Shown here in pieces: positions 6,027 through 56,057 of a stretch of 64,000 nt of DNA (positions are counted from its first letter, which is position 1; every line of letters begins with the position of its first letter). The position numbers and the translations under genes are program-made. The stretch covers positions 5,920,001 to 5,984,000 of the forward strand of contig OZ250169.1 in NCBI GenBank assembly GCA_965237955.1, written 5' to 3'. The stretch comes from Candidatus Marinacidobacterales bacterium. GTDB taxonomy: Bacteria; Acidobacteriota; Vicinamibacteria; Marinacidobacterales; SMYC01. Below the pieces are notes generated by a model. That model saw only the letters and a program-made list of their open reading frames with translations. It was not told the origin of the DNA and made no database searches.

Positions 6027-7215
6027 CTAGTCCCATGGAACAGAAAAAGCTAGACAACACCGGCCCTTCTGTGATCTGCTAAATGCATGAAACACAAGGG
6101 CCGGCGAAAAGCCGAATTGAAGCTGTCGTCTCAAGAAAGCGAAGCGCTGACGCGACTGGCGCGACGCAGCCGTAGTTCGCCGCACCAAGCCTTCCGAGCG
6201 AAGATCGTGCTGGATTGCGCGGCGGGTCTGACGAATATGGAAGTTGCTAGGAAGATGCACACCATGAGGAGCACGGTGGGCAAGTGGCGAAGACGCTTTG
6301 TAGAACAACGAATGGAAGGGTTGTACGACGAACCTCGGCCGGGAGCGGCTCGCAAAATCGGCGATGACCAGATCGAGGAAGTCGTGACCAAGACGCTGGA
6401 GACGACTCCAAAGGGGAGAACCCATTGGAGTACGCGCTCGATGGCCAAGCATCTTGGGCTGAGTCATTCGACGATTGGACGTATTTGGCGAACGTTCGGG
6501 CTTCAACCGCACCGCTCGGAATCGTTTCGTCTCTCGCAAGACCCACAACTGGTCGAAAAAGTACGCGACGTTGTTGGCCTGTATATGAACCCACCGGATA
6601 ACGCGGTCGTCCTGTGCGTCGACGAGAAATCGCAGATTCAAGCGCTCGAGCGTGCTCAACCTGTCCTGCCCATGAGCTTGGGCCAGCCCGAGCGACAAAC
6701 CCACGACTACATTCGGCATGGAACGACTGACCTGTTTGCCGCACTCGACGCCGCAACAGGTGAAGTCTTCGGAAAGTGCTACGCGCGACATCGAGCGCTA
6801 GAGTTCAAGAAGTTCCTCGCTGAGATCGAAGCAGCCGTTCCCAGCGAGTTGGACATCCACGTCGTGCTCGACAATCTCGCCACGCACAAGACACCGGCGA
6901 TCAAACGCTGGCTTTCCAAGCGACCTCGGTTCCACTTTCACTTCACACCGACACACGCCTCTTGGCTCAACTTCGCTGAGCGCTTCTTTGGCTTGCTCAC
7001 CGAACACGCCTTGCGACGAGGCTCGCACACGAGCGTGCCTCAGCTCCGCGTTGCGATACAAGACTATCTCGATGCTCACAACGAGAACCCAAAGCCGTTC
7101 AAGTGGACGAAATCCGCCGACCAAATCCTCGAAACCATCGCTCGGTTCGCCCAGCGAACGCTCGATACACATGGCAAATCGAATTTGGACAGTAATTAAA
7201 GATCCAGGGGACTAG
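6027..7215 (+). mobile_element. IS630-family element, copy 1 (coordinates include flanking CTAG)
   Basis: Ends CTAGTCCCATGGAAC ... GATCCAGGGGACTAG (imperfect IR), CTAG at both ends; matches copy 2. Confidence 0.95.
6087..7199 (+). CDS. IS630-family transposase
   Basis: HTH region, [35 protein letters not shown] motifs. Confidence 0.95.
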
Positions 7216-7221
7216 AGCGCC

Positions 7222-12795: not shown

Positions 12796-13984
12796 CTAGT
12801 CCCATGGAACAGAAAAAGCTAGACAACACCGGCCCTTCTGTGATCTGCTAAATGCATGAAACACAAGGGCCGGCGAAAAGCCGAATTGAAGCTGTCGTCT
12901 CAAGAAAGCGAAGCGCTGACGCGACTGGCGCGACGCAGCCGTAGTTCGCCGCACCAAGCCTTCCGAGCGAAGATCGTGCTGGATTGCGCGGCGGGTCTGA
13001 CGAATATGGAAGTTGCTAGGAAGATGCACACCATGAGGAGCACGGTGGGCAAGTGGCGAAGACGCTTTGTAGAACAACGAATGGAAGGGTTGTACGACGA
13101 ACCTCGGCCGGGAGCGGCTCGCAAAATCGGCGATGACCAGATCGAGGAAGTCGTGACCAAGACGCTGGAGACGACTCCAAAGGGGAGAACCCATTGGAGT
13201 ACGCGCTCGATGGCCAAGCATCTTGGGCTGAGTCATTCGACGATTGGACGTATTTGGCGAACGTTCGGGCTTCAACCGCACCGCTCGGAATCGTTTCGTC
13301 TCTCGCAAGACCCACAACTGGTCGAAAAAGTACGCGACGTTGTTGGCCTGTATATGAACCCACCGGATAACGCGGTCGTCCTGTGCGTCGACGAGAAATC
13401 GCAGATTCAAGCGCTCGAGCGTGCTCAACCTGTCCTGCCCATGAGCTTGGGCCAGCCCGAGCGACAAACCCACGACTACATTCGGCATGGAACGACTGAC
13501 CTGTTTGCCGCACTCGACGCCGCAACAGGTGAAGTCTTCGGAAAGTGCTACGCGCGACATCGAGCGCTAGAGTTCAAGAAGTTCCTCGCTGAGATCGAAG
13601 CAGCCGTTCCCAGCGAGTTGGACATCCACGTCGTGCTCGACAATCTCGCCACGCACAAGACACCGGCGATCAAACGCTGGCTTTCCAAGCGACCTCGGTT
13701 CCACTTTCACTTCACACCGACACACGCCTCTTGGCTCAACTTCGCTGAGCGCTTCTTTGGCTTGCTCACCGAACACGCCTTGCGACGAGGCTCGCACACG
13801 AGCGTGCCTCAGCTCCGCGTTGCGATACAAGACTATCTCGATGCTCACAACGAGAACCCAAAGCCGTTCAAGTGGACGAAATCCGCCGACCAAATCCTCG
13901 AAACCATCGCTCGGTTCGCCCAGCGAACGCTCGATACACATGGCAAATCGAATTTGGACAGTAATTAAAGATCCAGGGGACTAG
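12796..13984 (+). mobile_element. IS630-family element, copy 2 (transposase 12856-13968)
   Basis: Same ends, CTAG flanks and 370-aa transposase as copy 1. Confidence 0.95.
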
Positions 13985-13997
13985 GTAACGTACGACG

Positions 13998-14807
13998 ATG
14001 AAATCTATTTTGATAGCGGCTCTACTGCTCGGGGCCGTACCGAAGACTCTCGAGCCGCAGACTCTGGAGCTCGATCGCGACCGGCTCGAGCGCAACGAGG
14101 ACCTTTCCGAATCGCTCGCGAATCAACTGTTGGCGATGTCGGTCGCGGTGCGGCGCCAAGATCTGACCGAGGTCGCATCGAGCTTCCCTGCCACCGACCC
14201 ATTGGAAGCAACTCCGTTTCCGGAGCAGCCCGGACCCGACGCGCTCGTCGTGAAGTGGATCGAGCGCCACGAGTGGAATCTCGATACGGAGGCGAGTACG
14301 ATGCCGGCTTCCGAGCTCTTGAGCAGTCTCGAAGCGTTTCTCGGTCATTTCGAGAGCATCGATGACGTCCGCTTCAAGGTCAAGAACGCCGAGTTCGAGC
14401 CGAAGGAACCAGCCACTGGAAGGGCCAAGATCTTCTTCGTTCTTGTTGGGCGAAATCACGACGGCGAGCGCGAGTGGGTCCGTGGATGGAGCGACGTGCG
14501 TGCCACGCAACGACCCGACGAGACGTGGCGCATCGACTACTGGCGGTGGAGCGAGCTCGACTCGATGATGTCGACGCGCGATCTCTTCTCCGAGATCACC
14601 GAGCCCCTCGGAATGTGGGAAGACGTGCCACGGTTCGGCGATCCTCCGAACGATGGTTTCGTGGCGCATGGGGCCGCTGTTGCCGACGTCGATCTCGATG
14701 GACGGCTCGACGTGTTCACGAGCGGGGTAATGGCAAACCGGTTGTTCCTCAATCGCGGCGGCGGCAAACCGTTCGAAGATGTTTCCGAGGAGACGCTCGT
14801 TTTCTTG
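13998..14807 (+). pseudogene. 5' part of a secreted FG-GAP/ASPIC-UnbV (CRTAC1-like)-TlpA protein, interrupted by IS1595
   Basis: Signal peptide MKSILIAALLLGA; FG-GAP repeat AVADVDLDGRLDVF; joins 22033 in frame once the IS and one 8-bp DR are removed (EETLVFL|TRRGTGTIFLDYDNDGD). Confidence 0.88.
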
Positions 14808-14877
14808 GGGAATTATATACTATACTACACGCCAGTCCGCCGGACCTGTGCTACGATTGGTACAGGGTACAGCTTTA

Positions 14878-15180
14878 ATGACGGACGATCAAAAAGGACA
14901 GGAAATCGGGAGCCGCACGATTCGGCTAAGTTCCATACGAAGCGAACTGACTGTCGCTCGCAACGAACGAGATACGGCACTTGGCCGCCTTCGTCGCGCC
15001 GGGGAACAGGCCGACGACTACTTGAAAAGACATGCGAATGATTGCGAATGGCCCACGCCTTCGGAGATTAGATCTCTAATCTCTCGTGTGATCAAGTTGG
15101 ACCAAGAAGCACACAAGATCATTTCCGAACTGCGAGGACTAGGCGCTGACGCCGACCTGTTCAAGATGAATGGCGACTAG
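14878..15180 (+). CDS. Hypothetical helical/coiled-coil protein (IS1595 passenger)
   Basis: 100-aa ORF from ATG 14878, converging on the 65-aa ORF; no recognised motif. Confidence 0.5.
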   Translation: MTDDQKGQEIGSRTIRLSSIRSELTVARNERDTALGRLRRAGEQADDYLKRHANDCEWPTPSEIRSLISRVIKLDQEAHKIISELRGLGADADLFKMNGD

Positions 15181-15374
15181 CTTTTCGTCCTAGTCGGCTT
15201 CTTCAAATACCGCCACCCGCCTGGTGGAACCCTCGGACTTGTCAGCACCGCTCTGGCGATATTCTCCGGGGTGTCTGGGATCAGGTCCGGCATCGGCTTC
15301 GCAGGACGGCCACGCCCTCGCTTTGCCTTCGGTTCCTTCTCCTTCGTGGTCGCTCCTTTTTCCACTTCTTTCAT
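15177..15374 (-). CDS. Small basic protein with AT-hook-like RGRGRP motif (IS1595 passenger)
   Basis: 65 aa, KRGRGRPAK and PDTPENIARAVL; starts immediately after the stop of the 15376 ORF. Confidence 0.6.
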   Translation of the reverse strand: MKEVEKGATTKEKEPKAKRGRGRPAKPMPDLIPDTPENIARAVLTSPRVPPGGWRYLKKPTRTKS

Positions 15375-15375
15375 G

Positions 15376-17022
15376 TCATTGAACCAGAAGTGCCCTCGCT
15401 ATACCAATGACAGCTGTCTTTGCTTCCGATTGTGACATCCCAGTTTCTTGCCGCGCAACCAGATAGGCGGACCACCATTCGGAGCACTTCATTGTGTCCA
15501 ACCCAAGAGCCGACACCTGGCTTGTAATCGAGAACAGATTGTTAGAAAGCGCTAAGAGCCCTTCTTCTGACCCGAGCCCGGCCTTTTTCATATCATTCCA
15601 AGAGAAGACCAGCATATCGGATGCCTTCATTGGAGTTCCGATATCGTTGCACATACGTACGAACCGTGGAACTAGAAACTCAAATCGGGTTCGCGTGGTT
15701 ACTGATTCACTTCTTTGCGGTTGCGCAAGTGTCGTCAACATCTCCGGAACGCTTCGCTTTTGGCTTGCATCAGATACAGCTGAAGACCCTAGCCCCCTGG
15801 ATCTTTAATTACTGTCCAAATTCGATTTGCCATGTGTATCGAGCGTTCGCTGGGCGAACCGAGCGATGGTTTCGAGGATTTGGTCGGCGGATTTCGTCCA
15901 CTTGAACGGCTTTGGGTTCTCGTTGTGAGCATCGAGATAGTCTTGTATCGCAACGCGGAGCTGAGGCACGCTCGTGTGCGAGCCTCGTCGCAAGGCGTGT
16001 TCGGTGAGCAAGCCAAAGAAGCGCTCAGCGAAGTTGAGCCAAGAGGCGTGTGTCGGTGTGAAGTGAAAGTGGAACCGAGGTCGCTTGGAAAGCCAGCATT
16101 TGATCGCCGGTGTCTTGTGCGTGGCGAGATTGTCGAGCACGACGTGGATGTCCAACTCGCTGGGAACGGCTGCTTCGATCTCAGCGAGGAACTTCTTGAA
16201 CTCTAGCGCTCGATGTCGCGCGTAGCACTTTCCGAAGACTTCACCTGTTGCGGCGTCGAGTGCGGCAAACAGGTCAGTCGTTCCATGCCGAATGTAGTCG
16301 TGGGTTTGTCGCTCGGGCTGGCCCAAGCTCATGGGCAGGACAGGTTGAGCACGCTCGAGCGCTTGAATCTGCGATTTCTCGTCGACGCACAGGACGACCG
16401 CGTTATCCGGTGGGTTCATATACAGGCCAACAACGTCGCGTACTTTTTCGACCAGTTGTGGGTCTTGCGAGAGACGAAACGATTCCGAGCGGTGCGGTTG
16501 AAGCCCGAACGTTCGCCAAATACGTCCAATCGTCGAATGACTCAGCCCAAGATGCTTGGCCATCGAGCGCGTACTCCAATGGGTTCTCCCCTTTGGAGTC
16601 GTCTCCAGCGTCTTGGTCACGACTTCCTCGATCTGGTCATCGCCGATTTTGCGAGCCGCTCCCGGCCGAGGTTCGTCGTACAACCCTTCCATTCGTTGTT
16701 CTACAAAGCGTCTTCGCCACTTGCCCACCGTGCTCCTCATGGTGTGCATCTTCCTAGCAACTTCCATATTCGTCAGACCCGCCGCGCAATCCAGCACGAT
16801 CTTCGCTCGGAAGGCTTGGTGCGGCGAACTACGGCTGCGTCGCGCCAGTCGCGTCAGCGCTTCGCTTTCTTGAGACGACAGCTTCAATTCGGCTTTTCGC
16901 CGGCCCTTGTGTTTCATGCATTTAGCAGATCACAGAAGGGCCGGTGTTGTCTAGCTTTTTCTGTTCCATGGGACTAGTCCAACTGTAACAAGAATCACAA
17001 AAGACAGTATCGGTCGGAACAT
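15376..17022 (-). pseudogene. Secreted hypothetical protein (~153 aa, IS1595 passenger) interrupted by IS630 copy 3
   Basis: Removing the IS630 restores MFRPILSFVILVTVGLGSSAVSDASQKRSVPEMLTTLAQ... (signal peptide, GAAAGG upstream). Confidence 0.75.
15789..16977 (-). mobile_element. IS630-family element, copy 3 (transposase 15805-16917)
   Basis: Reverse copy with CTAG flanks; one aa change (IKCW vs IKRW) and one terminal base change. Confidence 0.95.
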
Positions 17023-17400
17023 TGGGATGTTTGGCCTTTCCCCCACCCTGGCGGGCACCATCGATTAGGTGCCGTCGGGCCGGTTGCCAGGACGACCGGC
17101 GTTTGGCATGCGCAGAGTACACGCAACTTGCGCGCGCGTGTCCAGATAATTCTAGGGCATCAGCGGATTTCCAGCAGGACCTGGAAATGCAGTAGAATAG
17201 AGCCTGAAAAAGGAAACGCCCCTCGTTGGACGTCGCATGGTCTTTTCTTCCGTTACTCGTTCTTCAAGAACGGCAGACAAGTAGAGCAATGGCTTTGTTT
17301 CTGGGCTTTCTGCGCATTCCTGAGCCGGTCTAGCACCTTAGAATATTGCGGGGTGTCGTTGTACAACCAGAATCCAAATAGACGTAAGGAGAACAAAATC

Positions 17401-17703
17401 ATGGGTATTTTGAGTCAGTGGTGGATGCTGGCTGAAGCGATTGTGCGCTACGAGCGAGACGACCCTGGCGCTTACGAACTTGGCGATTCGAACAAATACA
17501 CCGTCTATGTTGGAAGCTCTGGTAAGGTTAAGAACCGTTTAGGCGATCACATTGATGCTCCAACGGATAGCTGTATCGGAAGCAAGGCGCGTTACTACCG
17601 CGTCGAGTACTGCTCTAACTACGAGCAGCGGGAGAGGGAGCTATACGATGAGCACGTTAGGTCGTATGGACAACCACCAGAATGCAACGCTGTCAGGCCA
17701 TGA
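17401..17703 (+). CDS. Small GIY-YIG-superfamily nuclease-like protein (IS1595 passenger)
   Basis: PGAYEL...VYVGSS...KNRLGDH...EREL...PECN pattern; AAGGAG SD before ATG 17401. Confidence 0.7.
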   Translation: MGILSQWWMLAEAIVRYERDDPGAYELGDSNKYTVYVGSSGKVKNRLGDHIDAPTDSCIGSKARYYRVEYCSNYEQRERELYDEHVRSYGQPPECNAVRP

Positions 17704-17941
17704 TCGGGTCGTCGGCCTTGCAGACGTCGCGGGCACTCTCGACCGACTCTCGTATCTTCCCCGCATCTTCGCTGCGCCCTACGCCCCGGCCCCAGCCGTC
17801 GTAATAGCCATCCGGCGTGAAATAGTGGTCGAGGTTTGGGTCCTGGATTTGGTTGAGCAAGCTTCCATTGACGCAGATCATATTCCCGCTGAGCGTCAGA
17901 GTCTCGACGCTGCCGTCTTCCCGTAGAACCTTCACCTTCAT
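17693..17941 (-). CDS. Hypothetical protein (IS1595 passenger)
   Basis: 82-aa ORF with GGAGG upstream, co-oriented with and downstream of the transposase. Confidence 0.55.
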   Translation of the reverse strand: MKVKVLREDGSVETLTLSGNMICVNGSLLNQIQDPNLDHYFTPDGYYDGWGRGVGRSEDAGKIRESVESARDVCKADDPIMA

Positions 17942-18337
17942 GGACTGAGCCCTCCGATTTAAGGTACACTTAACCTGAAGGCTCGAGTGGGATAGGTCGG
18001 GAAACTTGGCCCGCGAGCTTTTGCTGCCTACTTCTATTTTGCAGCTACCACTTTAGCTGTGAGATCCTTGTAGCGCAAGCGCTTCCCGTCCATGCCTCGA
18101 ACCATCGCGGCCATCTGGTCGATGGTGTCGGCGGTTCGGACATTGTGGCGGCCGGAGAACTCGTCCACGTAGCGGTGAAGGTGCTTCGGGCTCATTCGGT
18201 GGTAGGTGCCGTAGTAGCCGCGCTTGAGCATGGCCCAAAAGCTCTCGATGCCGTTCGTGTGCGCCATGCCGTTCACGTACTCGCTCACGGAGTGGCGGAC
18301 CGTCTCGTGGTTCGGCAGGCCCGCGTAGCCTGCGTAT

Positions 18338-18490
18338 TCCGGGGCATCGTGAACGCAGATTCCAGCCGAAGGTGAACATCCATTCCAAAGCACCGTGAAC
18401 ACGGATTCCGGGGATCGTGAACATCGATTCCGGGGAAGGTGAACACGGATTCCAGGCAACGTGAACGCCGGTTCCGGCATCGCGAACGCT
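18338..18490 (+). repeat. Tandem ~22-bp subterminal repeats of IS21 (transposase-binding sites)
   Basis: About seven units of the form TTCC-N-GTGAAC; inverted copies near 21205-21270. Confidence 0.85.
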
Positions 18491-18550
18491 CATCGATAGC
18501 ACGTTTCAAGGCAACTCTAGGTCGTACCCGGAAGGAGGACGATCTAGGAA

Positions 18551-20107
18551 ATGGCAGCTAAGAGGTTATCGATGAGAAAAACACGAGAGGTTCTAAGGTT
18601 AAAGTACGAGCTGGGTTTTACTCACCGCATGATCGCAAAGGCACTTCGCGTGGCGGTTGGAACGGTGAGTGAGTACCTGGCCAAGGCGAAGAAGGGTGGT
18701 CTGAGCTGGCCGCTCCCGGAGGAGCTGAGCGACGGGGAGCTGGAGGCAGGGCTGTTTCCGCCGCCGGGCTCGTCTGGCGCACGGCCGGGTCTGGACTATG
18801 CCCACATCCACGAGGAGCTGAGGCGTCACCGAGAGCTGACGTTGCTGCAGCTGTGGGTGGAGTACGCGGAGAATAAGCCGGGAGCGTACGGCTACAGCCG
18901 TTATTGCGAGCTGTACGGTCAGTGGAAGAAGAAGCTGAACCCGACGATGCGTCAACGGCATCGAGCAGGCGAGAAGACATTCGTCGATTTTTCGGGGAAG
19001 AAGCCTCACATCGTCGATCCGAAAACGGGAGAGCTCGTCGAAATGGAGCTGTTCGTCGGGACGTTGGGCGCGAGCAGTTACACCTACGTCGAAGCGACAC
19101 TGAACCAGTCGCTGGAATCGTGGGCGAAGGCCCATAAGGGGATGTCGGATTACTTCGGTGGCAGTACGGAGATCTGGGTTCCGGACAACTTGAAGAGCGG
19201 CGTGGATTTGGTGGACCGTTACGAGCCAGGGATCAACCGGACGTACGAAGAGCTGGCGACGCATTACGGTGCGGTTGTGGTCCCGGCTCGGGTGTTCAAG
19301 CCGAAAGACAAAGCGAAGGTGGAGTCGGCAGTGCAGGTGGCGCAGCGCTGGATCCTGGCGGTGCTTCGTCATCGCACGTTCTTCAGCCTGGCGGAACTGA
19401 ACGAAGCCATCTGGGAGAAGTTAGAGGTCCTGAATGCGCGTCCGATGCAGAAGCTCGGTGTGAGTCGGCGGGAGTTGTACGAAAGGCTAGACCGGCCCGT
19501 ACTGAAACCGCTACCGCAGGAGAGCTACGAGTTATCGACGTGGAAGCGGTGCAGAGTGAACATCGACTACCACGTGGAGGTGGAGAACAACTTGTACAGC
19601 GTTCCCTATCAGCTCATTCACGAGAAAGTCGAGGCACGGGTGACGGCCTCGGTGGTGGAGGTCCTGTTCAAGGGAAAGCGCGTCGCGTCGCATCCCCGCA
19701 AGAAAGGAAAGGGGCACTACTCCACGAACCCGGAGCATATGCCACGTTCGCATCGGGAGCACCTGGAGTGGACGCCGTCGCGGCTGCTCCACTGGGCGGA
19801 GCAGTCAGGTCGCGCCACGGGAAGGCTGGTTGCGGGGATTCTAGAGAGTCGGCCTCACCCGGAGCAGGGATTTCGCTCTTGCCTGGGAGTCATGCGACTA
19901 GGCAGCCGCTGGGGCAGTGAGCGTCTCGAGGCCGCTTGCGCACGAGCGGAAGCTTTGAGCTCTTACAGCTATCGCACGGTGAAAAACATTCTCTCGGCTG
20001 GTCTGGATCGTGTGGTGCTCGAATCGGACGCCGAAGCGAAACCGCGAGAGGAGCACGAGAACATCCGAGGCGCGGATCACTACGAAGGAGGAGAGTCCCG
20101 ATGCTGA
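18551..20107 (+). CDS. istA: IS21 transposase IstA
   Basis: RQRHRAGEKTFVDF, VPDNLKSGV, KPKDKAKVE, NIDYHVEV. Confidence 0.95.
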   Translation: MAAKRLSMRKTREVLRLKYELGFTHRMIAKALRVAVGTVSEYLAKAKKGGLSWPLPEELSDGELEAGLFPPPGSSGARPGLDYAHIHEELRRHRELTLLQLWVEYAENKPGAYGYSRYCELYGQWKKKLNPTMRQRHRAGEKTFVDFSGKKPHIVDPKTGELVEMELFVGTLGASSYTYVEATLNQSLESWAKAHKGMSDYFGGSTEIWVPDNLKSGVDLVDRYEPGINRTYEELATHYGAVVVPARVFKPKDKAKVESAVQVAQRWILAVLRHRTFFSLAELNEAIWEKLEVLNARPMQKLGVSRRELYERLDRPVLKPLPQESYELSTWKRCRVNIDYHVEVENNLYSVPYQLIHEKVEARVTASVVEVLFKGKRVASHPRKKGKGHYSTNPEHMPRSHREHLEWTPSRLLHWAEQSGRATGRLVAGILESRPHPEQGFRSCLGVMRLGSRWGSERLEAACARAEALSSYSYRTVKNILSAGLDRVVLESDAEAKPREEHENIRGADHYEGGESRC

Positions 20108-20859
20108 CACCCGAAACGATAGAAAAGATGAACGCCATGAAGTTGTTCGGCTTGGTGTCCGCGTTCGAAACCCAGTTGAGCTCGAGCGAATACAAGGAGC
20201 TGAGCTTCGAGGAACGTGTGGGACTCCTGGTCGATGCCGAGTGGACCGCCCGCGAACAGCGTAAGCTTTCTCGACGACTGCGAGCGGCAAAGCTCCGCTA
20301 TCCGGCATGTTTGGAGAACGTGAACTTCCAAGCGCCTCGAGGCTTAAACCGCGAACAGATCTTGAGCCTGGGCAACTGCCGCTTTGTCGGTGAGCGCCAT
20401 AACCTGCTCATCACCGGCCCGACGGGGATTGGCAAATCGTTCTTGGCTTGCGCCTTCGTGGAGCGGGCCTGTCGTCGCGGCTTCACCGGATGCTACGTGC
20501 GAGCACCGCGCTTGCTCCACGAGCTCGCGGTCGCTCGTGGTGATGGTTCCTACGCCCGGCTTTTGACGAAACTCGCCAAGCTGGACTTACTGGCTATCGA
20601 TGATTGGCTGCTTCACCCGCTGAAAGAATCGGAGAGACGGGATCTAATGGAGGTCATCGAAGACCGCGCCGAGCGTGGCTCCACACTCATCGCGACCCAG
20701 ATTCCGCTCAAGCAGTGGCACGAAGCGATTGGCGACCCAAACCAGGCAGACGCTATCTGCGATCGCATTCTCCACAGCGCGCACCGCATCACTCTCAAAG
20801 GAGCTTCTCTGAGAAAGACCAAGGCTGCGCCAAAGGCATTTGACAACGCCGATGCATGA
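20101..20859 (+). CDS. istB: IS21 helper ATPase IstB
   Basis: GPTGIGKS, LLAIDDW, ADAICDRILH; ATG 20101. Confidence 0.95.
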   Translation: MLTPETIEKMNAMKLFGLVSAFETQLSSSEYKELSFEERVGLLVDAEWTAREQRKLSRRLRAAKLRYPACLENVNFQAPRGLNREQILSLGNCRFVGERHNLLITGPTGIGKSFLACAFVERACRRGFTGCYVRAPRLLHELAVARGDGSYARLLTKLAKLDLLAIDDWLLHPLKESERRDLMEVIEDRAERGSTLIATQIPLKQWHEAIGDPNQADAICDRILHSAHRITLKGASLRKTKAAPKAFDNADA

Positions 20860-22032
20860 GCGAGCGAGGGACCACAGCGTCGATGCGATAAAAACGGGTG
20901 AAACCGCCAAACCCGGGGTACCAGACGATGCGGCGCCAAAACGACGCGCGAGAATGCCTCAGGAAGCGTCTTCTCGAGCCAGGCCATACCCCAGCAACCC
21001 CCCGAAACCAGCCCCACATCGCCCGGGGTTCGGCCGCGGCAGGTCGCTGCCTACGGGAGCGGGAAGGTCGCTTCGCGTCTTTCCTTACGCCCGCTCCCTC
21101 CGGCACCGACCTGCCGCCCCTTGCTACACAACACGCAGGTAAGATAGGTTCACGTTTTCAATCAGTGGAAAGGAGGTCACCCAACACTTCATCGCTTCGA
21201 TGAGCGTTCGGCTTCACCGGATTCGCTGTTCAGCTTGCTCTGGATTCGGCGTTCACGATGGCTGGAATACGCAGCGTAGCCTCGATGATCGTCGGTGTAC
21301 ACCTTTGCGCCAGGTTCGGTGCGCTGCACCACGAAGCCCTTGAGCGTGTCGCCGTCCGTACTCTCGATGACCTCGGCGCTGACGCGGTTCGTCTGGCGGT
21401 CCTTCGCGCCGATGACGGCGGTCTTGCCGACGGTGCCGCGTCCCTTGATGACTTGCTCGCGTTTGTGCGCGTGCATGTTCTTGGCTTTGCCACCGATGAA
21501 GGTTTCGTCTATCTCAACCGGCCCGCTGAACGGAAGCCCATCGCGGCCCCATGACTCGCGGATACGATGCGCCAGGTGCCACGCTGTTTTCTGCGTGACC
21601 TCAATGTCTCGGTGGAGCTTCATGCTGGAGGCTCCTTTCAAGTTGGTCGAGAGAAGGTAGAACGCGATCGCCCACTTCTGCAATCCTAGGTTTGACGCTT
21701 CTATGGGCGTCCCCGTTCTGACGCTGAAGTACTTCCGGCAGGCCCCGCAGTAGTAAGGCATCGGCCTGCGATTCTTTCTCGCTTTGACGCGCTCACTGGT
21801 GTCACAGTACGGGCAGGTTACGCCATTGGGCCAGCGAGTCTCAACGAACCAACGTTCGGCAGCGGCATCGTCGGGAAACATGCGGGTGAGTCCTACGAGC
21901 GAAAGACCTTTGCGGTAGTGTTTGCCAGGTGCTGTGTGCGCCATCCGTGTGCCTCCAATAATGGAAGCGTACTACACATAACCTGGCCTGTCAAGCCTTT
22001 TGTGTAGTATCGTATATAATTCCCTTTTCTTG

Positions 22033-23949
22033 ACCCGGCGGGGAACCGGTACGATTTTTCTCGACTACGACAACGATGGCGATCGGGACATCTTCATGGC
22101 GGCGGTGGGAGAGCAGATACTTCTCCAAAACCAGCTTCGACCGGAAGGCCGCCTGGAGTTTATCGATGTGTCGGCCGAAGTGGGAGTCGACCATCGTGCG
22201 GTCGGGTTCAGCCCGGTCGCTGCGGATGTCAACGGAGACGGCCACACCGATATCTACGTTTGCTCCTACAACCTCTATGGCCAAATCATGCCGAACTCAT
22301 GGAGCCGCGCGACAAACGGCACGCCGAACTTGTTGTTCATCAACCAGGGCGACGGTACGTTTCGTGAGGAAGCGCGGACGTGGGGGGCGGCGGACGCTCG
22401 TTGGAGCTACGCCGGCGCGTTCGCGGACGTCGACGGTGACGGGCGGCAAGATCTCTACGTGGCGAACGATTTCGGCGAGAACGCGCTTTTCATGAACCGG
22501 GTTGACCACTTCGAAGACGAGGCGAGCGCCCGCGGTGTCGTGGATCCCGGCAACGGCATGGGGGTGTCGTTTGGCGACTACGACAACGACGGCGACCTGG
22601 ACTTGCACGTGACCAACATGTCGTCGACGGCCGGAAATCGAATCCTCGCCCGACTCATGCCCGAGGCGAGCGCCGACGACGCGGTGTTGAAAAAGCTCGC
22701 CGCGGGCAATTCGCTCTTCGAGAACAACGGTGACGGGACGTTCCAAAACGTTGCTGAGTCTGCTGGCGGTTTCGGCGCGGGGTGGGCGTACGGCGGCGGG
22801 TTCGTCGATTTCGACAACGATGGATGGGAGGATACCTACTCGGTGAACGGATTCGTTTCCGGCAAGACGATGAAGGACACGTGAAGCCTTTTCTGGCGCC
22901 ACGTCGTGGCGTCCGCGAGCGAGCAGGAGGCGGCCGGCAATCGCTCCTACCAGAACGAGCACATGGCTCAGCTTTTCGACGAAGGCATGTCGTTCAGCGG
23001 GTTCGAGCGCAACAACCTCTACCTCGCTCGCGGAGACGGTACCTACGTGGACATCTCGGGCGTCTCCGGACTGGACTCCATCACCGATGGACGCGGACTG
23101 GCGTTCGGAGATTTGGACAACGACGGCGATCTGGACGTGGTGATAACGCCGGTGCAAGAGGTCGCACGGCTGGTCTATCGCAACAACGTCGGGCAGGACA
23201 ACGCGTTCGTCCGCATGACGGTCAAGGGAACGCAATCGGCGAGTGATGCGTTCGGAACCGTATTGCGTCTGGAGACGGAGTTGGGTACGCAGACGCAGAT
23301 CAAAGCCGGAGGTCGCGGATTTCTGTCCTTCAGCGATCCACGGGTTCTCTTCGGCGTGGGGACCGTGAATGCGGAGCCTTATCGTCTCACCGTGCTTTGG
23401 CCTTCCGGCCTCGAGGAGAGCTACGACGTTCGCGCCGGCGACAGCGTTCTCGTGACCGAGAACGAGGGTATGGAGCGCATCAAAGAGAAACCTTTCGAGC
23501 TTCCCGATCCGGAGACGGCGTCTGAGAGAATTCTTCGCACGTTGAACCTCGAACAAGGCGCGCCCTTTCCCACCCTCGCCGGTGTGGGAGCCATGGGAGA
23601 CTCCGGACGGCGGACGCTTCTGAACATCTGGGCGACGTGGTGCGTGCCTTGCTCGGTAGAGATGCCCGAGCTCGAGCGCGCCTATCCTGCGCTGCAAGCG
23701 GCGGGGATCGATCTCATCGGCCTCAGTGTCGACACCGCGCCGGAAGGCGTGCCCGGCTATCTGGAGGCGAAAGGGATCACGTACCCGAACTTCGTCGTTG
23801 CCGAAGACGATTTCCCCAAGATCTTCAAGGGCGACGCGCTCACGGTTCCGCTCACGGTACTCCTCGACGAAGCGGGTCTCGTGGTAGAAGCGTATTCGGG
23901 CTGGAGTACTGACACCCGCGCCAAGATCGACGCTTTAGCGCAACAATAA
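22033..23949 (+). pseudogene. 3' part of the FG-GAP/ASPIC-UnbV-TlpA protein with in-frame TGA at 22882-22884 (candidate Sec)
   Basis: DxDxDG repeats, ASPIC/UnbV-type region (GFLSFSDPRVLFGVG...VLWPSG), C-terminal WATWCVPC; ORFs 22000 and 22906 share one frame separated only by TGA. Confidence 0.85.
22895..22913 (+). promoter_or_regulatory. SECIS-like hairpin
   Basis: GGCGCCAC-GTC-GTGGCGTC 8-bp stem, G-first loop starting 18 nt after TGA. Confidence 0.6.
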
Positions 23950-24135: not shown

Positions 24136-24191
24136 AATCAAGCAGAGCCTGGGCGCGCTAGTTGGTCCCGATGCGATATAGTCTTTTTTTA

Positions 24192-27075
24192 ATGTCGGGC
24201 AAGCAGGTTTTTCTCAGCTATTCCCTCGAGGATATCGAAATGGCTCGGCACGTGGTTCGTGCCATCGAAGCTCGCGGTTGGCCCATTTCCTGGGAGCGGT
24301 ACGACGACCCCGACGCGATTGCAACCCTTGCGCTCCGTGAAGCGCTGACCGCTTCCGATTGCGTCGTCGTGCTGTGGTCGGCGCATTCGGTCGACTCCGA
24401 AGCGATTCGTGAGGAGGCGAGCTCCGCGAGAAGTCGAGGTGCTCTCGTCCAGGGGACGCTCGACGATGCCGCGGTACCCATGCCGTTCGTGCTCGACGAG
24501 CCGACCCCTCTCACCGATGAGTGGAGTGTGACGACGTTGGTGCAGCAGATCGCGCGCGTTCTCCACGACGAGGCCACTACGCTTTCGAGAGAATCGCAGG
24601 AGCGGACGCCGAACGCCGAAGTACGACTCGAAGCGCGTGTGCTCGATATTGCGGAACAGCATGCCGACGCCGGTGAGCTCGACAAAGCCATCACCGCCTA
24701 CGAGCGCTGGATCGAGTGTTTCGGTTCAGCTGGAACATGACAGTCCTGAAGTTAAAATACGCACATGGAAAAAGGAGCTGTCATGAGCAAAGGTCGTCGT
24801 CGTCACACTGCGGAGCAAAAGGCAGAGCTGTTGCGCCAGCACGTTGCCGAGAAAAAGCCGGTCTCGGAGGTATGCAACGAGGCAGAAATCCAGCCGAGCC
24901 TGTTCTACACATGGCAAAGGGAGCTATTGGCTGGAGCCCATACGGTGTTTTCGTTCCGTCGTGCGCCGAGCCGTGAGAAGGAGCTAGAGGAGAAGCTCTC
25001 CCGTCTCGAGGCGAAGGTGGCCCGTAAGGATCAGATCATCGCTGAGGTGACCGAAGAGTACGTGACACTCAAAAAAAAACTTGGGGAAGCCTGAGTGGTG
25101 CCTGGATTCCCCATGACCGTCGTGACGAGGTTGTCGACTTCGTGAACACAATCGCCACCAAGACCCAGCTTCCGGTCCAGCAGATCGTTCAGTGGTGCGG
25201 GATCGCTCGGGGCAAGTTCTACGACTGGCGCAAGCGGTACGGGAAGGTGAATGAGCACAACGGCCTGGTGCCGCGGGATCACTGGATCGAAGAATGGGAG
25301 CGCCAGTCCGTGATCGACTACTTCGACTGCCACCCACTGGACGGGTATCGCCGACTCACGTTCATGATGCTGGACGAAGACGTGGTGGCAGTTAGCCCCT
25401 CGACGACGTACCGGGTGTTGTCGAAGGCGGGTCGTCTGGACCGTTGGAACCCGAAGCCGTCGAAGAAGGGAACGGGCTTCGTTCAGCCGCTGCGAGCGCA
25501 CCAGCACTGGCACACGGATATCTCGTACTTGAACCTGGGTGGGACGTTCTACTACCTCTGCTCGTTTCTGGATGGTGCGAGCCGCGCGGTGGTTCACTGG
25601 GAGATTCGTGAGTCGATGACGGAAGCGGATGTGGAGTGCATCTTGGAGCGAGCAAAGGAGCGGTACCCCGATGCGCGGCCTCGAATCATCTCGGACAACG
25701 GTCCGCAGTACATCGCGAAGGACTTCAAGGCATTCATCCGCATCTCAGGGATGACGCACGTGAGGACCGCGCCGTACTACTCGCAATCGAACGGGAAGAT
25801 CGAGCGTTGGCACAAGACGATAAAATCGGACGCCCTGCGTCCTGCCAGCCCCACGAGCCTCGAAGAGGCTCGCCGCTTGATGGAACGATTCGTCGAATAT
25901 TACAACGGGGTTCGCCTGCACAGCGCGATCGGCTACATTGCGCCGCTGGACTTCATGGATGGCAAGGCCACCCAGATCTGGTCGGAGCGAGACCGCAAAC
26001 TCGAGCAGGCTCGGAAGCTGCGGCGTGAGCGCCGTGCGAACAAGGTGCCCGCATGAACACTCTGATCCCAGGAGCCCCACTCCGTTCCCTCTCGCCCACA
26101 AGCATTGAGTACCAGAGAGCGCAGGGGGCGTCAAGGGCGGCGAAGCCGGCGCGCGCAGCGCGCTTTACCCTTGACGCCCCCGAGCACTCTGGTACGATCC
26201 CTGGGGCGATAGGGGACATCCTGCCGCCGGGCGTTGCGTTAACGTCCAACCTCGCTGTCATCTTCACGCTGAACCAATACACGAGGAGAAAGCCGATGAC
26301 ATGAAGGCGGTGCGCCGGCTGGGCGATCTCTACCTCGCGTCGGATCGCGATCAAGACGCCGCAGCCCAATACGAGCACGTTGCCGAGCACTACGCAACCG
26401 CCGGGTTTCTCGTGCCCGCGATCGAGACTTACAAGCGCATGGTCGAGCTCACACCTGACAACGAGGCGTTTTCCGCTCGTCTCGCCGCGCTCGTCGAGGA
26501 GAAGGAGCTCCAAACGACGAATACTCAACGGGCGATGTCCTCCGTCCAATTCACTCTCACCGCGCCGCCGTACGTGAGAGCCGGAGAAACCTTCTCCCTC
26601 GACGTGTGGGCGCATCGTGAAGACGACCGCGCCGAGGTAACGAAGCGTCTCGATGAAGGCTACGGGCGCGACAAGTCCGAGGCGGTCGCGGGACCTGCCC
26701 TCACCGCCCGGGTGCACATCGATGGCCTCGACATCAGAAGCTCCGAGATGAGTCTGAGGTGGGACCGGGGCCTCGGGACGGGAACGTTTCAGGTCTCAAC
26801 TACGGCAGCGACCGTTCCCGGAGCACGTACCGGCGTCGTTGGCATCTACTTTCTCGGACTCCAAATCGCGCGGATCCACTTTCTAGTCCCGATCGGGGAT
26901 AGGACCGCTCCTCGCGAAATCATCCCGTCCCGCCAGGACCGCCACACACGTGCCTTGGCCTGTTTCGCCCCCGAGGATCGCGACGCCGTCGAAGCTCGCA
27001 TCCGCTCCTTCGAGCAAGCGGCTCCGGGGGTCGATGTGTCTCTCGACGCCATCGAGCTGCGCGGGAGGGAAAATG
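24192..27075 (+). pseudogene. TIR-TPR multidomain protein interrupted by IS3 and truncated in a second TIR-like domain
   Basis: VFLSYSLED...DCVVVLWSAHSVDS TIR motifs; rejoins in frame ERWIE|EKADDMKAVRRLGDLY; ends abruptly after ACFAPEDRDAV...VSLD. Confidence 0.75.
24717..26281 (+). mobile_element. IS3-family element (orfA 24783-25094, orfB to 26056, -1 frameshift at A9C 25071-25080)
   Basis: TG...CA ends with IR (TGTTTCGGTTCAGC/GCTGAACCAATACA), 4-bp DR CGAG, DDE motifs WHTDISY, SDNGPQY, NGKIERW. Confidence 0.93.
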
Positions 27076-34206: not shown

Positions 34207-35653
34207 GGGAGATGCCCCTGAGATAGTTGAAGGTTAGGAGTGGCGGCTCCTAAGGCCGGGTTCGATAGAATCCGGCTGTGAAGGAAAAAGAAAGGAGCCA
34301 CCACGATGTCAAATTACCAAATCATCGATGCGAAGAACAGGAAGAAGCTTCGAGAGATACTGAGCTCGAAGGGGCAAGCTCTGTTGCCGTTCTTGGATGC
34401 GATTGAGCGAACCGAGATAGCGATCGACGAAGTGATCGACGTTGCTGGCCGAGCGACGATCGAAGCGGTCTTGGATCTGTCAGCCCAAAGTGTGGCTGGG
34501 GAGAAACACCCGGGGAAGAAGGGTAGCGATGTTCGCTGGCACGGCCGGCAGGGTGGCGTAGTAAGCCTTGCGGAGCGGAAGTTGAGAGTGAGCCGGCCAC
34601 GTCTGCGGCGTAAGGGAAAGGCAGAGGGAGGGGAGGTTGCGATTCCTGCCTACGAAGCGGTGAACAACTCGTCTCGGCTGAGCCAACGCATCTGGGAAAT
34701 CCTGATGCTGGGTGTGTCGACGCGCAAGTACGCGTCGGTTCTTCCCGAGATGGCGGAGACGGTAGGGGTTAGCAAGAGCGAGGTGAGCCGTGAGTTCGTG
34801 GAAGCAAGCGCGGAGCAGTTGCAGGGGCTGATGGAGCGTCCGCTGGACGAGCTGGAGATCGCGGTCGTGTACCTGGACGGGATTCGCTTCGGCGTGCACC
34901 ACGCGCTGGCGGCAATCGGCGTAGATACAGAGGGATACAAGCATGTTCTGGGGCTTCGGGATGGAGCATCGGAGAACCAGATAGTGTGCAAGGCGCTGCT
35001 GGAGGACCTGGTCGAACGAGGCCTGAGCCCAGAGCGGTGTCGGCTGTTCGTGATCGATGGCTCCAAGGCGCTACGGGTCGCCGTCGACGCTGTGTTCGGT
35101 ACCCACAACAAGGTCCAGCGTTGCAGGAAGCACAAGGAGCGCAATGTGCTCGGTTATCTGCCGCAGGAGCTGAAGCCGCAAGCGCAAGCGAGCCTGCGTT
35201 CGGCCTGGCAGCTCCCAGCAAAGAAGGGCAAAGCGCGGTTGGAGCAACAGGCGAAGTGGCTCGAGGACGACTACCCCTCGGCGGCGGAGAGCATCCGGGA
35301 GGGGCTCGACGAGATGTTCACCATCAACGAGCTCGACCTCCCCGCATCTCTGAAACGCTGCCTTGGATCGACGAACATCATCGAGTCGTGCTTCAGCGGT
35401 GCGCGAGGTCGTACCCGTCGCGTCACCCGCTGGCGCAATGGCAAGATGGTTCTGAGATGGGCCGCTTCGGCTCTGCTCGCCACGGAGAAAAATTTCCGTC
35501 GTATCATTGGATACCAATCGCTACCTATCCTCGAAGCGAAGTTAGCGGAGGTCACTGAGAATCAAGCGCTCGACAAGCACGCCAAAGTCGGGTAAACCAT
35601 GTGTCAGGAGCCGCCACCACCTCGAACCTCCAACTATGCTGGGGGCACCTCCC
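34207..35653 (+). mobile_element. IS256-family element (transposase 34306-35595), no target duplication
   Basis: IR GGGAGATGCCCCTGAGATAGTTG vs reverse complement GGGAGGTGCCCCCAGCATAGTTG; VYLDGI, VIDGSKAL, QRCRKHK, STNIIES. Confidence 0.92.
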
Positions 35654-35654
35654 G

Positions 35655-35843
35655 AGCATCACCTTGAGTGAGCACTTCGTGACGTTCATCGAGGAACAGG
35701 TTTCCGAAGGTCGCTACGGCAACGCGAGCGAAGTGATCCGCGCTGGCTTGAGGCTACTCGAAGAGCGTGAAGCCAAACTCGACGCTCTGCGACGCGCGAT
35801 CACTGAAGGAGAAACTGTCGTAGAATCAGTGCCTGATGGGTGA
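35655..35843 (+). pseudogene. ParD-family (RHH) antitoxin, N-terminally truncated, no cognate toxin
   Basis: SITLSEHFVTFIEEQVSEGRYGNASEVIRAGLRLLEE begins at the IS256 end. Confidence 0.8.
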
Positions 35844-38800
35844 GGAGGACAAAGCTCAATCGGATGGCGAGCATACCGTCGTTCAGGACGAGGACGAGCG
35901 TGCACGCTCGAAGGATCGCAGCGCCGAGCTCCCTGAGCCCGAAGTCCCCGGCTACGACGTGAAACGCCGCCTTGGCGCGGGCTCGTACGGGGAAGTCTGG
36001 CTTGCGATTCAAAAGAAGGTTCTCCTGTCGTTTCGGGGGATCTGATTTGTGTTGGAGGGCATGGCCTATGGACGCTGCCGCGATTGTGGAAAACGCCGAA
36101 AACTCCGGGCGAGAGAGGCGTTTAGGGAAAGGTTGTGAGCACGTACAAACGTGGAGCGGCGTTTTCCACAATCGCTTGGAAAACGCTTCGCGTTTCCCAC
36201 GAGCGCCCACAGGCCCCTCCTGATATATATACAAGAAAGATTAATTCATATGGAATAAGGAAGGGGGGGCTCGATTAGTGGAGGCTATGGAAAACGCCCT
36301 TCCAGGCTTCGAAGAGAACTCAGTCGTGAGCAAGGTCTGAACGACCAGAACCGTGGGGGCGTTTCCCACAGCCTTGTCTCCCGCTGAGGGGCAGTGGCAT
36401 TTGGTGAGGCCCGTGGATTGAGAGGGTAAGCCATGTGTAGATGCGCATCGGCGAGAACGCTAGAATCTTTTTTTCCGAAAGAGAAAAGAGCGTTCCCGCG
36501 ATGCGCGTTACTACGTTAGTCAACAAGCTCATCGGATTGCAAGGCCTGTGGGTCCGAGGTTTCCACTTCCAGGCGGACAAAGCCAGAGTGGTGGTGGATG
36601 TAGTACCACGGAGGAGGAAGCCTCTGTGCGGGATTTGCGGACGAAAGGTCCGCAAGAACAAAGATCGCTACAATCGCTACTGGCGGCACTTGGACCTGTT
36701 CGGAGTCCGGACCTATCTTCGCTACTCGATCCGACGAGTGGTATGTCGGCGGTGTGGAGTGGTCAGAGAAAAGGTGCCTTGGGCAGACAAGGGAAGCCGC
36801 TTTACCAAAAGCTTCGAACAAGAGGTAGCGTGGCTGGCACAGAGGACGGACGTCAGCGCCGTAGCGAACTATTTCCGAGTGACGTGGCGTTCGGTGCGAC
36901 GGATCATCCAGCGAGTGGTTGCCGAGCAGCGGGATGAGCGGCGCGAGCTCGATGGATTGCGGGTGATTGGGATGGACGAGATCAGCTACCGCAAACGCCA
37001 CAAGTACTTAACAGTGGTAATAGACCATCTCAGCGGCCGGGTCGTCTGGGCGGGAAAGGAGCGCAAGGCCAAGACGCTGCTGCGGTTTTCCCGCAAGCTC
37101 GGACCACAAAGAGCCGCGGAGCTCGAAGCGGTCAGCATGGACATGTGGGAGCCGTACATAACTGTCGTCGGCAAAAAGGCTCCTCAGGCACGGGTGATCT
37201 TTGACCGCTTCCACATCGTCAAGCATCTGAACGAGGCCGTGGATAAGACCCGGCGCGAGCTGGTGCGCGAGCTCAAAGGGACTGCCCGGCGCAACCTCAA
37301 GAACACCAAGTTTCCCCTTCTCAAGGCCAAACACAACCGCAGCGCGAAAGACAAACGGGTGCTCCGCGAGCAGGTGCGAGCTAATCGTCGCCTCTACCGC
37401 GCCATGCTTCTGCGCGACGACTTCATGGACCTCTACACCTACAAAACCGAGACATGGGCCAAGAAGTTTCTCCGAGGATGGCTGCGGCGCGCTATGAGCT
37501 CGAGGATAGAGCCCGTCAAACGCGCGGCGAAGATGATCCGCAGCCACTTCGATGGCGTCATCGCGTGGGTCACGTGGAGACTCAGCAACGGCCGACTCGA
37601 AGGAATGAACAACAAAATCCGGCTGCTGAGCCACCGCAGCTTTGGACTCCACTCTGCCGAAGCTCTCATCAGTCTCGTCTACCTAAACTGTGGCGGTCTC
37701 ACCCTCGAGAGGATCCACTGAAATGGCAGGAGAGGCCAAAAGAATACGGGACGCGAAGTCGCGATCAAATTCTTCTCGCGGTTCAAGGGTCTCGATTGGC
37801 CTCTCCTCAAAAGGGAAGTGGGAAAGCTCGTCGAAGTCCTCGGCGAGCGACGCGTCGTTCATCTGCTCCAAGTCGGGTGGGACGCCGAACCGCCGTACTA
37901 CGTCATGGAGTACCTTCCTGGAGGCTCGCTCGCCGAGCGTCTTTCCGGACGCGCGATCCCGGTGAAAGAAACGGTCGACGTGTTTCGCGAGGTCGCCGAG
38001 GCGCTCGTGTACTTGCACGGCAAAGCCATTCTTCATTGCGACCTGAAGCCGGCGAACGTGCTCTTCGACGATCACAACCAGATCCGGTTGGCGGATTTCG
38101 GCCAAGCGCGCCTGAGCAGCGAGGCGGGCCCGGCCGCGGGCACGCTCTTTTACATGGCACCCGAACAAGCCGCGCAAGACGCACGTCCCGACGTACGCTC
38201 CGACATTTATTCGCTCGGTGCTCTCGTCTACACGATGCTCACAGGTGCGCCACCGTATTCGGGGGGGAGGGCCACGACCGAGCTCCGCACCAGCAAATCG
38301 ACACGGGAGCGGATCGAACGTTATCGCGAAATCATCGAAGAATCCGACCCGCCGACAACACACCATCGTGTGGAAGGTGTCGACCGCTCCCTCGCCGAGA
38401 TCATCGATCGGTGTCTCGAGAAAAATCCGGATAAACGATACGAGAACGTCCCACAAGTTCTGGAGGCGCTCACGGCTCGGGCCAAGCGCCGCACCCAGAG
38501 ACCGCTCGTTGTTTTCGGTCTGCTGGGACCACTCGCGCTCGTTCTCGCGATGCCGGGCGTTGGAGTGTGGGCGTGGTACGAGGCCGACTCACAGGCGAGA
38601 GACACCCTCACACGACAAAACCTCGAAGGTGCGCTCGGGTTCGGAGAGCTCATCTCGGCGGTTGTCGATCGCAATCTATCCGCGGTGCAACGGCGCGTTA
38701 GCCGTGAAGCCGGACAAGAAGCGCTACACCGCCTCCTCGGCGCGGGACGCTCGACGGCGCTCCAGTCTTACACTGACGAGCTCTACGAAGCCTATCGAGA

Positions 38801-54989: not shown

Positions 54990-55521
54990 ATGAGAATAGT
55001 CCTGCCTAACTTGCTTATTTTCCTAAGCCTTAGCAACGTCGCTGTTCGCACAGGCCAGCGTGGACGTTGGGGACACGGCGCCTGATTTCGAGCTTCGGGA
55101 CTCGGCCGGCAAGACCTACAAGCTTTCCGAGTATCGAGGCGAGAAGGTCGTCGTTGTCGAGTTCTTCCGAAGCGGCGGTTGGTGACCCCACTGCAAGCGG
55201 CAGCTCGGTGAGCTGCAAGGATCACTCGATGCCATCCAAGCCGAGGGCGCCGTCCTCCTCGGAATCTCCAAGTACGACGCGGAGGAAACCGCGAGCTGGC
55301 TCGAGGAGGACGCCTGGGCGTTTCCAATTCTGTGCGACGGCGAGCCCGTCATCGAGTCGTATGGGCTCATCAATCCGGACGTCGGCCGAGAGTCGATGAA
55401 AGGCATCCCGCATCCTGCAACGATTATCATCGACAAGCAAGGCAAAGTGCGCTTCGTGAACGTATGGGTCGACTTTCGGCAGCGAACGTCTCCAGAAACG
55501 ATTATCGAGGAGTTGAAGTAG
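54990..55521 (+). CDS. Peroxiredoxin-like (AhpC/TSA) candidate selenoprotein, UxxC; +1 frameshift in signal peptide
   Basis: [10 protein letters not shown]...[12 protein letters not shown](55183)-PHCKRQL...[14 protein letters not shown]; hairpin GCAGCTC-GGT-GAGCTGC at 55200-55216; absent from ORF track. Confidence 0.85.
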
Positions 55522-55526
55522 ATCCA

Positions 55527-56057
55527 ATGAATGCGAATCGAATTGTCTTCGCGTGCGCGCTCGTCGCGGCGGCCTCCGTGCTCGCCGCAGAACAGATCGA
55601 GATCCCGGACTGGGAGAGCTCGGTGCAGTTTCGACTCGTGACTTCGCAGCAACCCATCCGTCCAGGGGACAGTTTCAGCGTGGCGCTCGTGGCCGAGATC
55701 GAAGAGGGCTACCATCTTTACGGTCCCGAGGAACCCTATCCAAGCCGGACCGAAGTTTCCGTCAATGGCGAAAACTTGAAAGTCGGGGATCCGTCATATC
55801 CTCCCGTCGAAACGCGGGAGCTCTCTGGTCTCGGCACCTACGATCTGTACGAAGGAAGCATCGCGATCCGGATTCCCGTGAAGCTCAGCGACTCGGGGGC
55901 CGCGGGTGAGCACACCGTGAAAGCATCGGTAAACTACCAGGTGTGCACGGATTTCGCTTGTAGCGCGCCCACCTCCGACGAGCTTGCTATCACAGTCGCC
56001 GGCGGCGCCATCGGGGCAGCTATCGAGACGCAGTATCCAGAAATCTTCGAGTTCTAA
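55527..56057 (+). CDS. Secreted DsbD N-terminal-domain-like protein
   Basis: Signal peptide, IEEGYHLYG, YQVCTDFAC; ATG 55527. Confidence 0.8.
   Translation: MNANRIVFACALVAAASVLAAEQIEIPDWESSVQFRLVTSQQPIRPGDSFSVALVAEIEEGYHLYGPEEPYPSRTEVSVNGENLKVGDPSYPPVETRELSGLGTYDLYEGSIAIRIPVKLSDSGAAGEHTVKASVNYQVCTDFACSAPTSDELAITVAGGAIGAAIETQYPEIFEF

Follow-up and report, generated by a model that had tools for sequence, protein, structure and literature searches.

The subject of this report is a gene at positions 13,998 to 23,949 of a 64,000-nucleotide stretch (hereafter, the window) of contig OZ250169.1 from a Candidatus Marinacidobacterales bacterium. Its reading frame is cut by an insertion sequence (IS) of the IS1595 family and contains a TGA codon. 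An in-frame UGA with homology on both sides was found to be a conserved trait of the family to which this gene belongs, and the hairpin behind it is conserved and covarying in the TGA genes. Judging from these two features together with the selenocysteine (Sec) machinery of the genomes, UGA is very likely recoded as Sec in the family. In the best reading, based on structure prediction, the product would be a probably exported selenoenzyme built of an NTF2-like domain, a propeller of CRTAC1 type and a TlpA domain. It is rather probable that its Sec is catalytic and is recycled by the fused thioredoxin domain.

A conserved in-frame UGA with a covarying hairpin

Excision of the IS1595 element (14808-22024) together with one 8-bp target duplicate (14808-22032 in all) gives a single frame of 908 codons and a stop, in which the only internal stop is TGA 22882-22884 (codon 554, context NGFVSGKTMKDT-U-SLFWRHVV). 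An earlier note on this DNA had proposed this frame, from 13998 to 23949 with one TGA, and it proved right to the base. The junction left after excision reads ETLVFLTRRGTG and aligns without gaps with intact alleles, and intact N-terminal halves of 553 amino acids (n = 5) are 94% identical and gap-free. The parts of the gene are as follows.

13998..14807, + strand: 5' part of the gene, codons 1-270, with a probable signal peptide, the NTF2-like domain and the first FG-GAP blade (sequence, domain search)
14061..14579, + strand: N-terminal domain with a predicted NTF2-like (SnoaL/cystatin-like) fold (AlphaFold2, predicted local distance difference test (pLDDT) 95; Foldseek)
22033..23949, + strand: 3' part of the gene, codons 271-908, with six further FG-GAP blades, the Sec insertion, UnbV/ASPIC and the TlpA-like domain (domain search, model)
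22882..22884, + strand: in-frame TGA, codon 554, likely selenocysteine, in the motif D-x-U-S-x-F-W-R-x-V-V (same column across homologues)
22895..22913, + strand: hairpin of the bacterial Sec insertion sequence (SECIS) type, GGCGCCAC-GUC-GUGGCGUC, with an 8-bp stem and a GUC loop (folding, published criteria)
23248..23424, + strand: UnbV_ASPIC domain PF07593, after the propeller (Pfam, E 3.8e-10, over the cut-off)
23605..23928, + strand: TlpA/ResA-like thioredoxin domain with CxxC (Pfam, fold and profile comparison)

The allele of the window is broken and is probably a recent pseudogene. This is deduced from the interruption at codon 270 and from an IS630 just upstream, in a genome with many IS copies; intact alleles are present in close relatives. 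Thus, the exported protein of about 908 residues expected earlier is supported as a reading of the family and is not made from this IS-cut allele. RNA run X18 gave short contigs only, one of which (253 nt) lies within the gene, and is uninformative on transcription. In relatives of the same family, the gene is placed after ptsI, at the end of the rpoN cluster, with a gap of 50-65 nt and without IS630. Six of the 14 near-identical N-terminal halves among the matches listed (P0139-P0144) are truncated or frameshifted, at differing positions, which may reflect either independent gene decay in the lineage or indel errors of long reads. It was also considered that the IS could be an assembly artefact, and this was rejected: its left junction is found in contigs of runs X1, X2 and X3, and a contig of X2 spans the empty site.

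Strong matches were found in 18 of 61 related genomes, with one TGA at 25 of 29 places. All 25 TGA codons lie at the same column; one of the remaining four places does not cover this column and three are distant. Database proteins follow the same pattern: among 120 in the matches listed, 60 stop exactly before the TGA codon and 29 begin just after it, 28 read through the codon (R 8, S 6, C 3, E 3, T 2 and six others once each) and 3 matched elsewhere. When a profile of the region was run on a sample of Acidobacteriota, matches were obtained in 60 of 251 genomes, with one TGA at 54 of 78 places; this tally takes in two unpublished genomes (G106 and G202) used in no other count. The 69 loci of the phylum that were opened gave TGA in 45 of 76 column rows. 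In a sample of Planctomycetota, 46 of 201 genomes had matches (up to 8 per genome), 90 of 99 places carried one TGA, and the TGA stood at the column in all 20 opened loci. A scan of genome contigs returned mostly distant CRTAC1-type genes, 8 of 79 loci (9 rows) covering the Sec column at the threshold used, and the ESM Atlas yielded only clusters of FG-GAP/UnbV proteins or of C-terminal halves.

The reading of the TGA as a nonsense mutation private to this copy, which the IS had already inactivated, has therefore next to no probability. In its favour are the IS interruption and the damage in close N-terminal halves mentioned above (6 of 14 listed); it is refuted by the same TGA at the same column in IS-free alleles across two phyla. 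The earlier note had made its Sec proposal depend on the residue that homologues carry at position 554, and the tabulated column keeps TGA, with few Cys (5 of 101 rows).

Two side observations concern TGA codons in relatives of the gene. A second Sec subfamily (DDL-U-LP[YF]) without thioredoxin occurs in L040 (4259 and 6787, in tandem) and L174 (4204) and is sister to non-Sec genes of the E type. A CRTAC1-type paralogue at G000:C1:5162239 has an in-frame TGA elsewhere (NDGH-*-GFEDV) with a weak hairpin; it was left out of the counts, and its TGA probably arose from a Trp codon by nonsense mutation.

The hairpin of the window has its loop start 18 nt past the TGA and an energy of -12.0 kcal/mol, so that the 8-bp hairpin with a G-first loop described in the earlier note was confirmed. 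The bacterial SECIS consensus, as given in PMC13188914, requires a loop 16-37 nt after UGA, G as its first base, a short upper stem and an energy below -7.5 kcal/mol, and the hairpin agrees with section 5 of that source. For counting, a perfect stem of at least 5 bp, G in loop position 1 or 2, a loop 14-23 nt past the codon and an energy of -5 kcal/mol or lower were demanded; the count excludes eight duplicate loci and three TGA genes in which a different peptide follows. Such a hairpin was present in 66 of 67 TGA genes, and 3 of 17 non-TGA genes that share the peptide motif have it. When the peptides were recoded synonymously, it arose in 1447 of 6700 trials (22%). Stem pair 15:25 is kept in 59 of the 67 TGA genes versus 4 of the 17 others, and five pair types (C-G, G-U, U-A, A-U and G-C) were observed. 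The hairpin was also found in 20 of 20 opened loci of Planctomycetota.

The genome of the window carries selA, selB, selC (tRNA-Sec) and selD, the set of genes whose lack the earlier note had named as decisive against Sec. TGA is the commonest stop of this genome, and its sole tRNA with a UCA anticodon is tRNA-Sec. Among related genomes, selA is near universal (58 of 61), so its presence there says little. In the phylum sample, selA was found in 35 of 37 TGA carriers, the other two having selB and tRNA-Sec. Of the 19 genomes in which all family genes are non-TGA, 4 are without selA; the three of them that were tested are also without selB and tRNA-Sec. In Planctomycetota, all 46 carriers of the family (43 TGA carriers included) have selA, versus 152 of 201 genomes overall. 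In G080, a family gene (L207 5324-10337) precedes selA in the same orientation, at a distance of 440 nt. As a side observation, ARAGORN reported an unassigned 91-nt tRNA and a tRNA-Cys with anticodon ACA (G000:C1:7889963-7890053 and 1295353-1295426).

These data also bear on the reading of TGA as a real stop between two genes, or as a UGA decoded as Trp or Cys by another route. Databases do call two open reading frames (ORFs), and a GTG at 22906 could start an ORF of 347 amino acids. Against this, the break would divide a single propeller blade, and the C-terminal half lacks a signal peptide; neither TAA nor TAG was ever seen at the Sec column in the opened loci of relatives, phylum sample and Planctomycetota; the hairpin is tied to TGA; TGA forms occur only in genomes with Sec genes; and there is no second UCA tRNA. 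Two real genes and an alternative genetic code were rejected on these grounds, and we regard both as very improbable.

Architecture of the protein and a possible thioredoxin-fed selenol

The structure was modelled with AlphaFold2 on an intact relative (L007), with Cys replacing Sec and 92 alignment rows; the pLDDT was 94 and the predicted template-modelling score (pTM) 0.91. The signal peptide is probable from K2 and a hydrophobic run, and relatives show A-x-A or lipobox-like ends. For the N-terminal domain, the best Foldseek E value was 1e-4, and the top rows were NTF2-like proteins with template-modelling scores of about 0.5. The FG-GAP repeats are predicted to form a seven-bladed propeller like that of CRTAC1/ASPIC-UnbV proteins. 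At the C-terminus, a thioredoxin fold with intact CxxC of TlpA/ResA type is present, and the WATWCVPC motif, placed by the earlier note in a TlpA-like domain that ends the protein, was located with C807 at 23641-23643 and C810 at 23650-23652.

In the model, Sec corresponds to residue 534 and opens helix 534-545 of a two-helix insertion in the sixth FG-GAP repeat (blade 6). The suggestion that Sec sits in a loop of a beta-propeller is thus retained as regards the propeller and modified as regards the loop: Sec is placed at a predicted helix start in a helical insertion that does not align to vertebrate CRTAC1. Sec lies among conserved residues, which in model numbering are D532, F537, W538, R539, S572, G573, E575, M446, S448 and R453. 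From the general topology of FG-GAP propellers, not from coordinates, the insertion presumably lies on the face opposite the calcium loops.

The joint occurrence of Sec and the fused thioredoxin was studied in 101 sequences: 75 locus rows and 26 read-through proteins (two of 28 were dropped as partial or misaligned). Thioredoxin with intact CxxC is fused in 44 of 45 Sec forms. Among 51 forms with neither Sec nor Cys, which include distant paralogues, 5 still have CxxC, 11 have a domain whose CxxC is destroyed and 35 have no such domain. A tree was also built, from which the Sec column and the thioredoxin domain were excluded. It yields 11 independent pairs in which one member has Sec and the other does not; CxxC changes the same way in 7 of them and the opposite way in none (median p 0.016). 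The columns of the ResA-type Glu and cis-Pro are retained in 98% of Sec rows. Of 20 Planctomycetota loci, 14 have CxxC, 4 are without thioredoxin and the other 2 are truncated at the end of the locus. The co-loss of Sec and CxxC is read here as a sign that Sec acts as a catalytic selenol and depends on a thiol to resolve it, which the fused domain would usually supply. It lends support to the earlier suggestion that the fused thioredoxin could service Sec.

Three of the four Planctomycetota loci without thioredoxin have a Cys five residues past Sec (U-S-x-F-W-C), and one is without a nearby thiol. In the three (L200, L201 and L204), this Cys stands in place of the conserved Arg, and the hairpin is still paired. 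It is possible that it acts as a built-in resolving Cys.

The following mechanism may be proposed. SelB very likely binds the hairpin and delivers Sec-tRNA, giving one protein of about 910 residues rather than the two ORFs called by databases. Sec would serve as the catalytic nucleophile of a reduction, and the oxidised selenium would be resolved by CxxC of the fused TlpA domain, fed ultimately, as we predict, by DsbD, whose gene is present in the genome. By analogy, the relay may be likened to Neisseria PilB (thioredoxin-MsrA-MsrB), in which fused thioredoxin feeds the Msr domains, and to Sec-containing MsrA: an exported, fused TlpA-like domain would recycle a thiol or selenol. The likeness would lie in the way of working, and no MsrA or MsrB domain was matched in Pfam or NCBIfam or found among the fold matches listed. 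The substrate could be small and hydrophobic, and either the NTF2-like domain or the pocket of the propeller could bind it.

Several facts do not fit this proposal well and should be set against it. Cys occupies the Sec column in only 5 of 56 non-TGA homologues, and the others have mostly S, R, E, A, N, D and so on, unlike typical Sec/Cys families. The region profile used for both phyla was itself built from TGA carriers. The gene selA is common in any case (58 of 61 relatives, 76% of Planctomycetota) and kin are not independent, so the co-occurrence with selA should be taken as patterns, not as p-values. Five forms with neither Sec nor Cys retain CxxC, only one of the five Cys forms has it (four are without fused thioredoxin), and the pair test yields p 0.06 when Sec and Cys are treated as one state. 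Sec forms without fused thioredoxin exist, namely L174, both L040 genes and 4 of the 20 Planctomycetota loci. No conserved neighbourhood was seen at 16 loci (46 of 141 ORFs scanned), and these gave no hint of a shared operon or pathway.

Another role for Sec would be that of a metal ligand or sensor residue inserted in the propeller pocket, with the thioredoxin keeping it reduced or acting on other proteins. Sec without fused thioredoxin speaks for such a role, as do conserved acidic and Met residues near Sec in the sequence; vertebrate CRTAC1 is not known to have catalytic activity. On the other hand, the loss of Sec is accompanied by that of CxxC and of the ResA-type Glu and Pro, the N-terminus of a helix is the usual place of a nucleophile, and no conserved Cys/His cluster was seen in the propeller in the family alignment. 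In our opinion, a metal-binding or sensing Sec is unlikely. Still lower is the probability that Sec is mainly a selenium-dependent switch of translation, so that the full-length protein would depend on a supply of Sec-tRNA and the nature of the residue would be of little importance. The column does tolerate at least 11 other residues once TGA is gone, and termination at TGA would leave an incomplete propeller, but a switch leaves the decay of CxxC after Sec loss, the Cys forms and the U-S-x-F-W-C forms unexplained.

Relation to known systems and selenoprotein catalogues

The decoding signal resembles the bacterial SECIS inside an ORF, whose archetype is Escherichia coli fdhF, in UGA, loop spacing, G-first loop, short upper stem, energy and selABCD, as described in PMC13188914. 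The propeller and UnbV are shared with murine CRTAC1 (PDB 9etn; Foldseek E 4.8e-31, VIA Z 39.7, root-mean-square deviation 2.4 over 450 residues). Unlike CRTAC1, the family adds the NTF2-like domain, the TlpA domain and the Sec-bearing helical insertion, and profile stretch 502-625 gave no sequence alignment to CRTAC1. With the TlpA/ResA oxidoreductases, the family has in common the fold, the WAxWCxxC motif and the conserved Glu and Pro; it differs from them in the fusion of the domain to the C-terminal side of a propeller, in scores far below the NCBIfam cut-offs and in a motif that is Cys-Cys, not Sec.

Sec of the propeller family is found neither in a CxxU/UxxC motif nor in a metal-cofactor enzyme. 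The family is in none of the 119 prokaryotic selenoprotein families of Table 1 of a 2026 review (PMC13188914), and no FG-GAP/UnbV protein stands in that table. In NCBIfam 20.0, no model matches the Sec region of 13 of 13 sequences, and elsewhere only thioredoxin matches below the cut-off were obtained. The presumption that this selenoprotein type is possibly undescribed fits these comparisons, within the lists covered. A search by terms in the main text and the supplements covered of deep-Sep (PMC12013277), BSepDB (PMC13326102) and SelCysML (PMC13745706) did not find the family, and in the passages of PMC3174227 that were consulted ASPIC/UnbV is named only as a paralogue family. Literature on selenoproteins with UnbV, CRTAC1 or FG-GAP, or on in-frame UGA in Acidobacteria and Planctomycetes, contained nothing relevant, which does not prove absence from print; the unvalidated candidate list of Deng et al. 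2026 could contain the family.

The family is carried by about a fifth to a quarter of the sampled genomes in two phyla. In databases it appears as two hypothetical genes, so that the selenoproteomes of these bacteria are undercounted. Searches for Cys/Sec pairs are likely to miss a Sec of this kind, which lies in a propeller insertion and has few Cys homologues. As far as sequences indicate, the Sec site marks the probable active centre in a protein family without known biochemistry. With slightly less than even probability, the family could be among the largest overlooked bacterial selenoprotein families and represent a new class of selenoenzymes, in which a Sec-bearing helical insertion has converted a CRTAC1-type propeller into an extracytoplasmic reductase that has a thioredoxin and a ligand-binding domain of its own and occurs as up to 8 paralogues per genome. 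If so, this would be the first catalytic function for bacterial ASPIC/UnbV proteins.

Mobile elements and other Sec candidates

The elements that interrupt or precede the gene are listed below.

12797..13983, + strand: IS630 between ptsI and the gene, TA target duplicated (ends read; transposase same as in the nested copy)
14800..14807, + strand: left target duplicate TTTTCTTG, 8 bp (sequence)
14808..22024, - strand: IS1595-family element, 7217 bp including nested elements (terminal inverted repeats, Pfam PF12762/PF12760, genome BLAST)
15790..16976, - strand: IS630 nested inside IS1595 (Pfam, genome BLAST)
18331..21273, + strand: IS21 (istA/istB) nested within the IS1595 transposase gene, 8-bp duplication (Pfam, genome BLAST)
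22025..22032, + strand: right target duplicate TTTTCTTG, 8 bp (sequence)

The assignment to IS1595 is based on the transposase of this family, the terminal inverted repeats at 14808 and 22024 (22 of 23 nt matching) and the 8-bp target duplication. By genome BLAST, IS1595 has one full copy in the genome, IS21 more than 30 near-full copies and IS630 more than 35 copies; more than 30 of each are near-identical. IS21 splits the IS1595 transposase gene into 21189-21944 and 18034-18480, and an ORF of the DUF7508 type (17128-17703) is a passenger of IS1595. The upstream IS630 ends 14 nt before the ATG of the gene, and a contig of run X2 joins across it.

The IS load of the window is dense (6027-7221, 12797-13983, 15790-16976, 18331-21273, 25142-26056, 34306-37721 and 61397-63093), the types being IS630 (three), IS21, an IS3-like integrase ORF, IS256-like, ISL3 and ISAzo13. 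IS630 also stands between lptB and rpoN. Behind the selenoprotein gene, a TIR-domain gene (24162-24740) is cut near the IS3-like element.

The earlier note had also counted two conventional Sec candidates in the window. One was identified, at TGA 55183-55185 (+ strand), FFRSGGW-U-PHC, which is of UxxC type, peroxiredoxin-like and accompanied by a hairpin; which second site was meant was not found. The identified candidate lies upstream of an ORF for a DsbD N-terminal domain (55332-56057). A further thioredoxin-like candidate with a hairpin, WASW-U-AGC, probably of the WAxxUGC type, was observed at G000:C1:5216091 (+).

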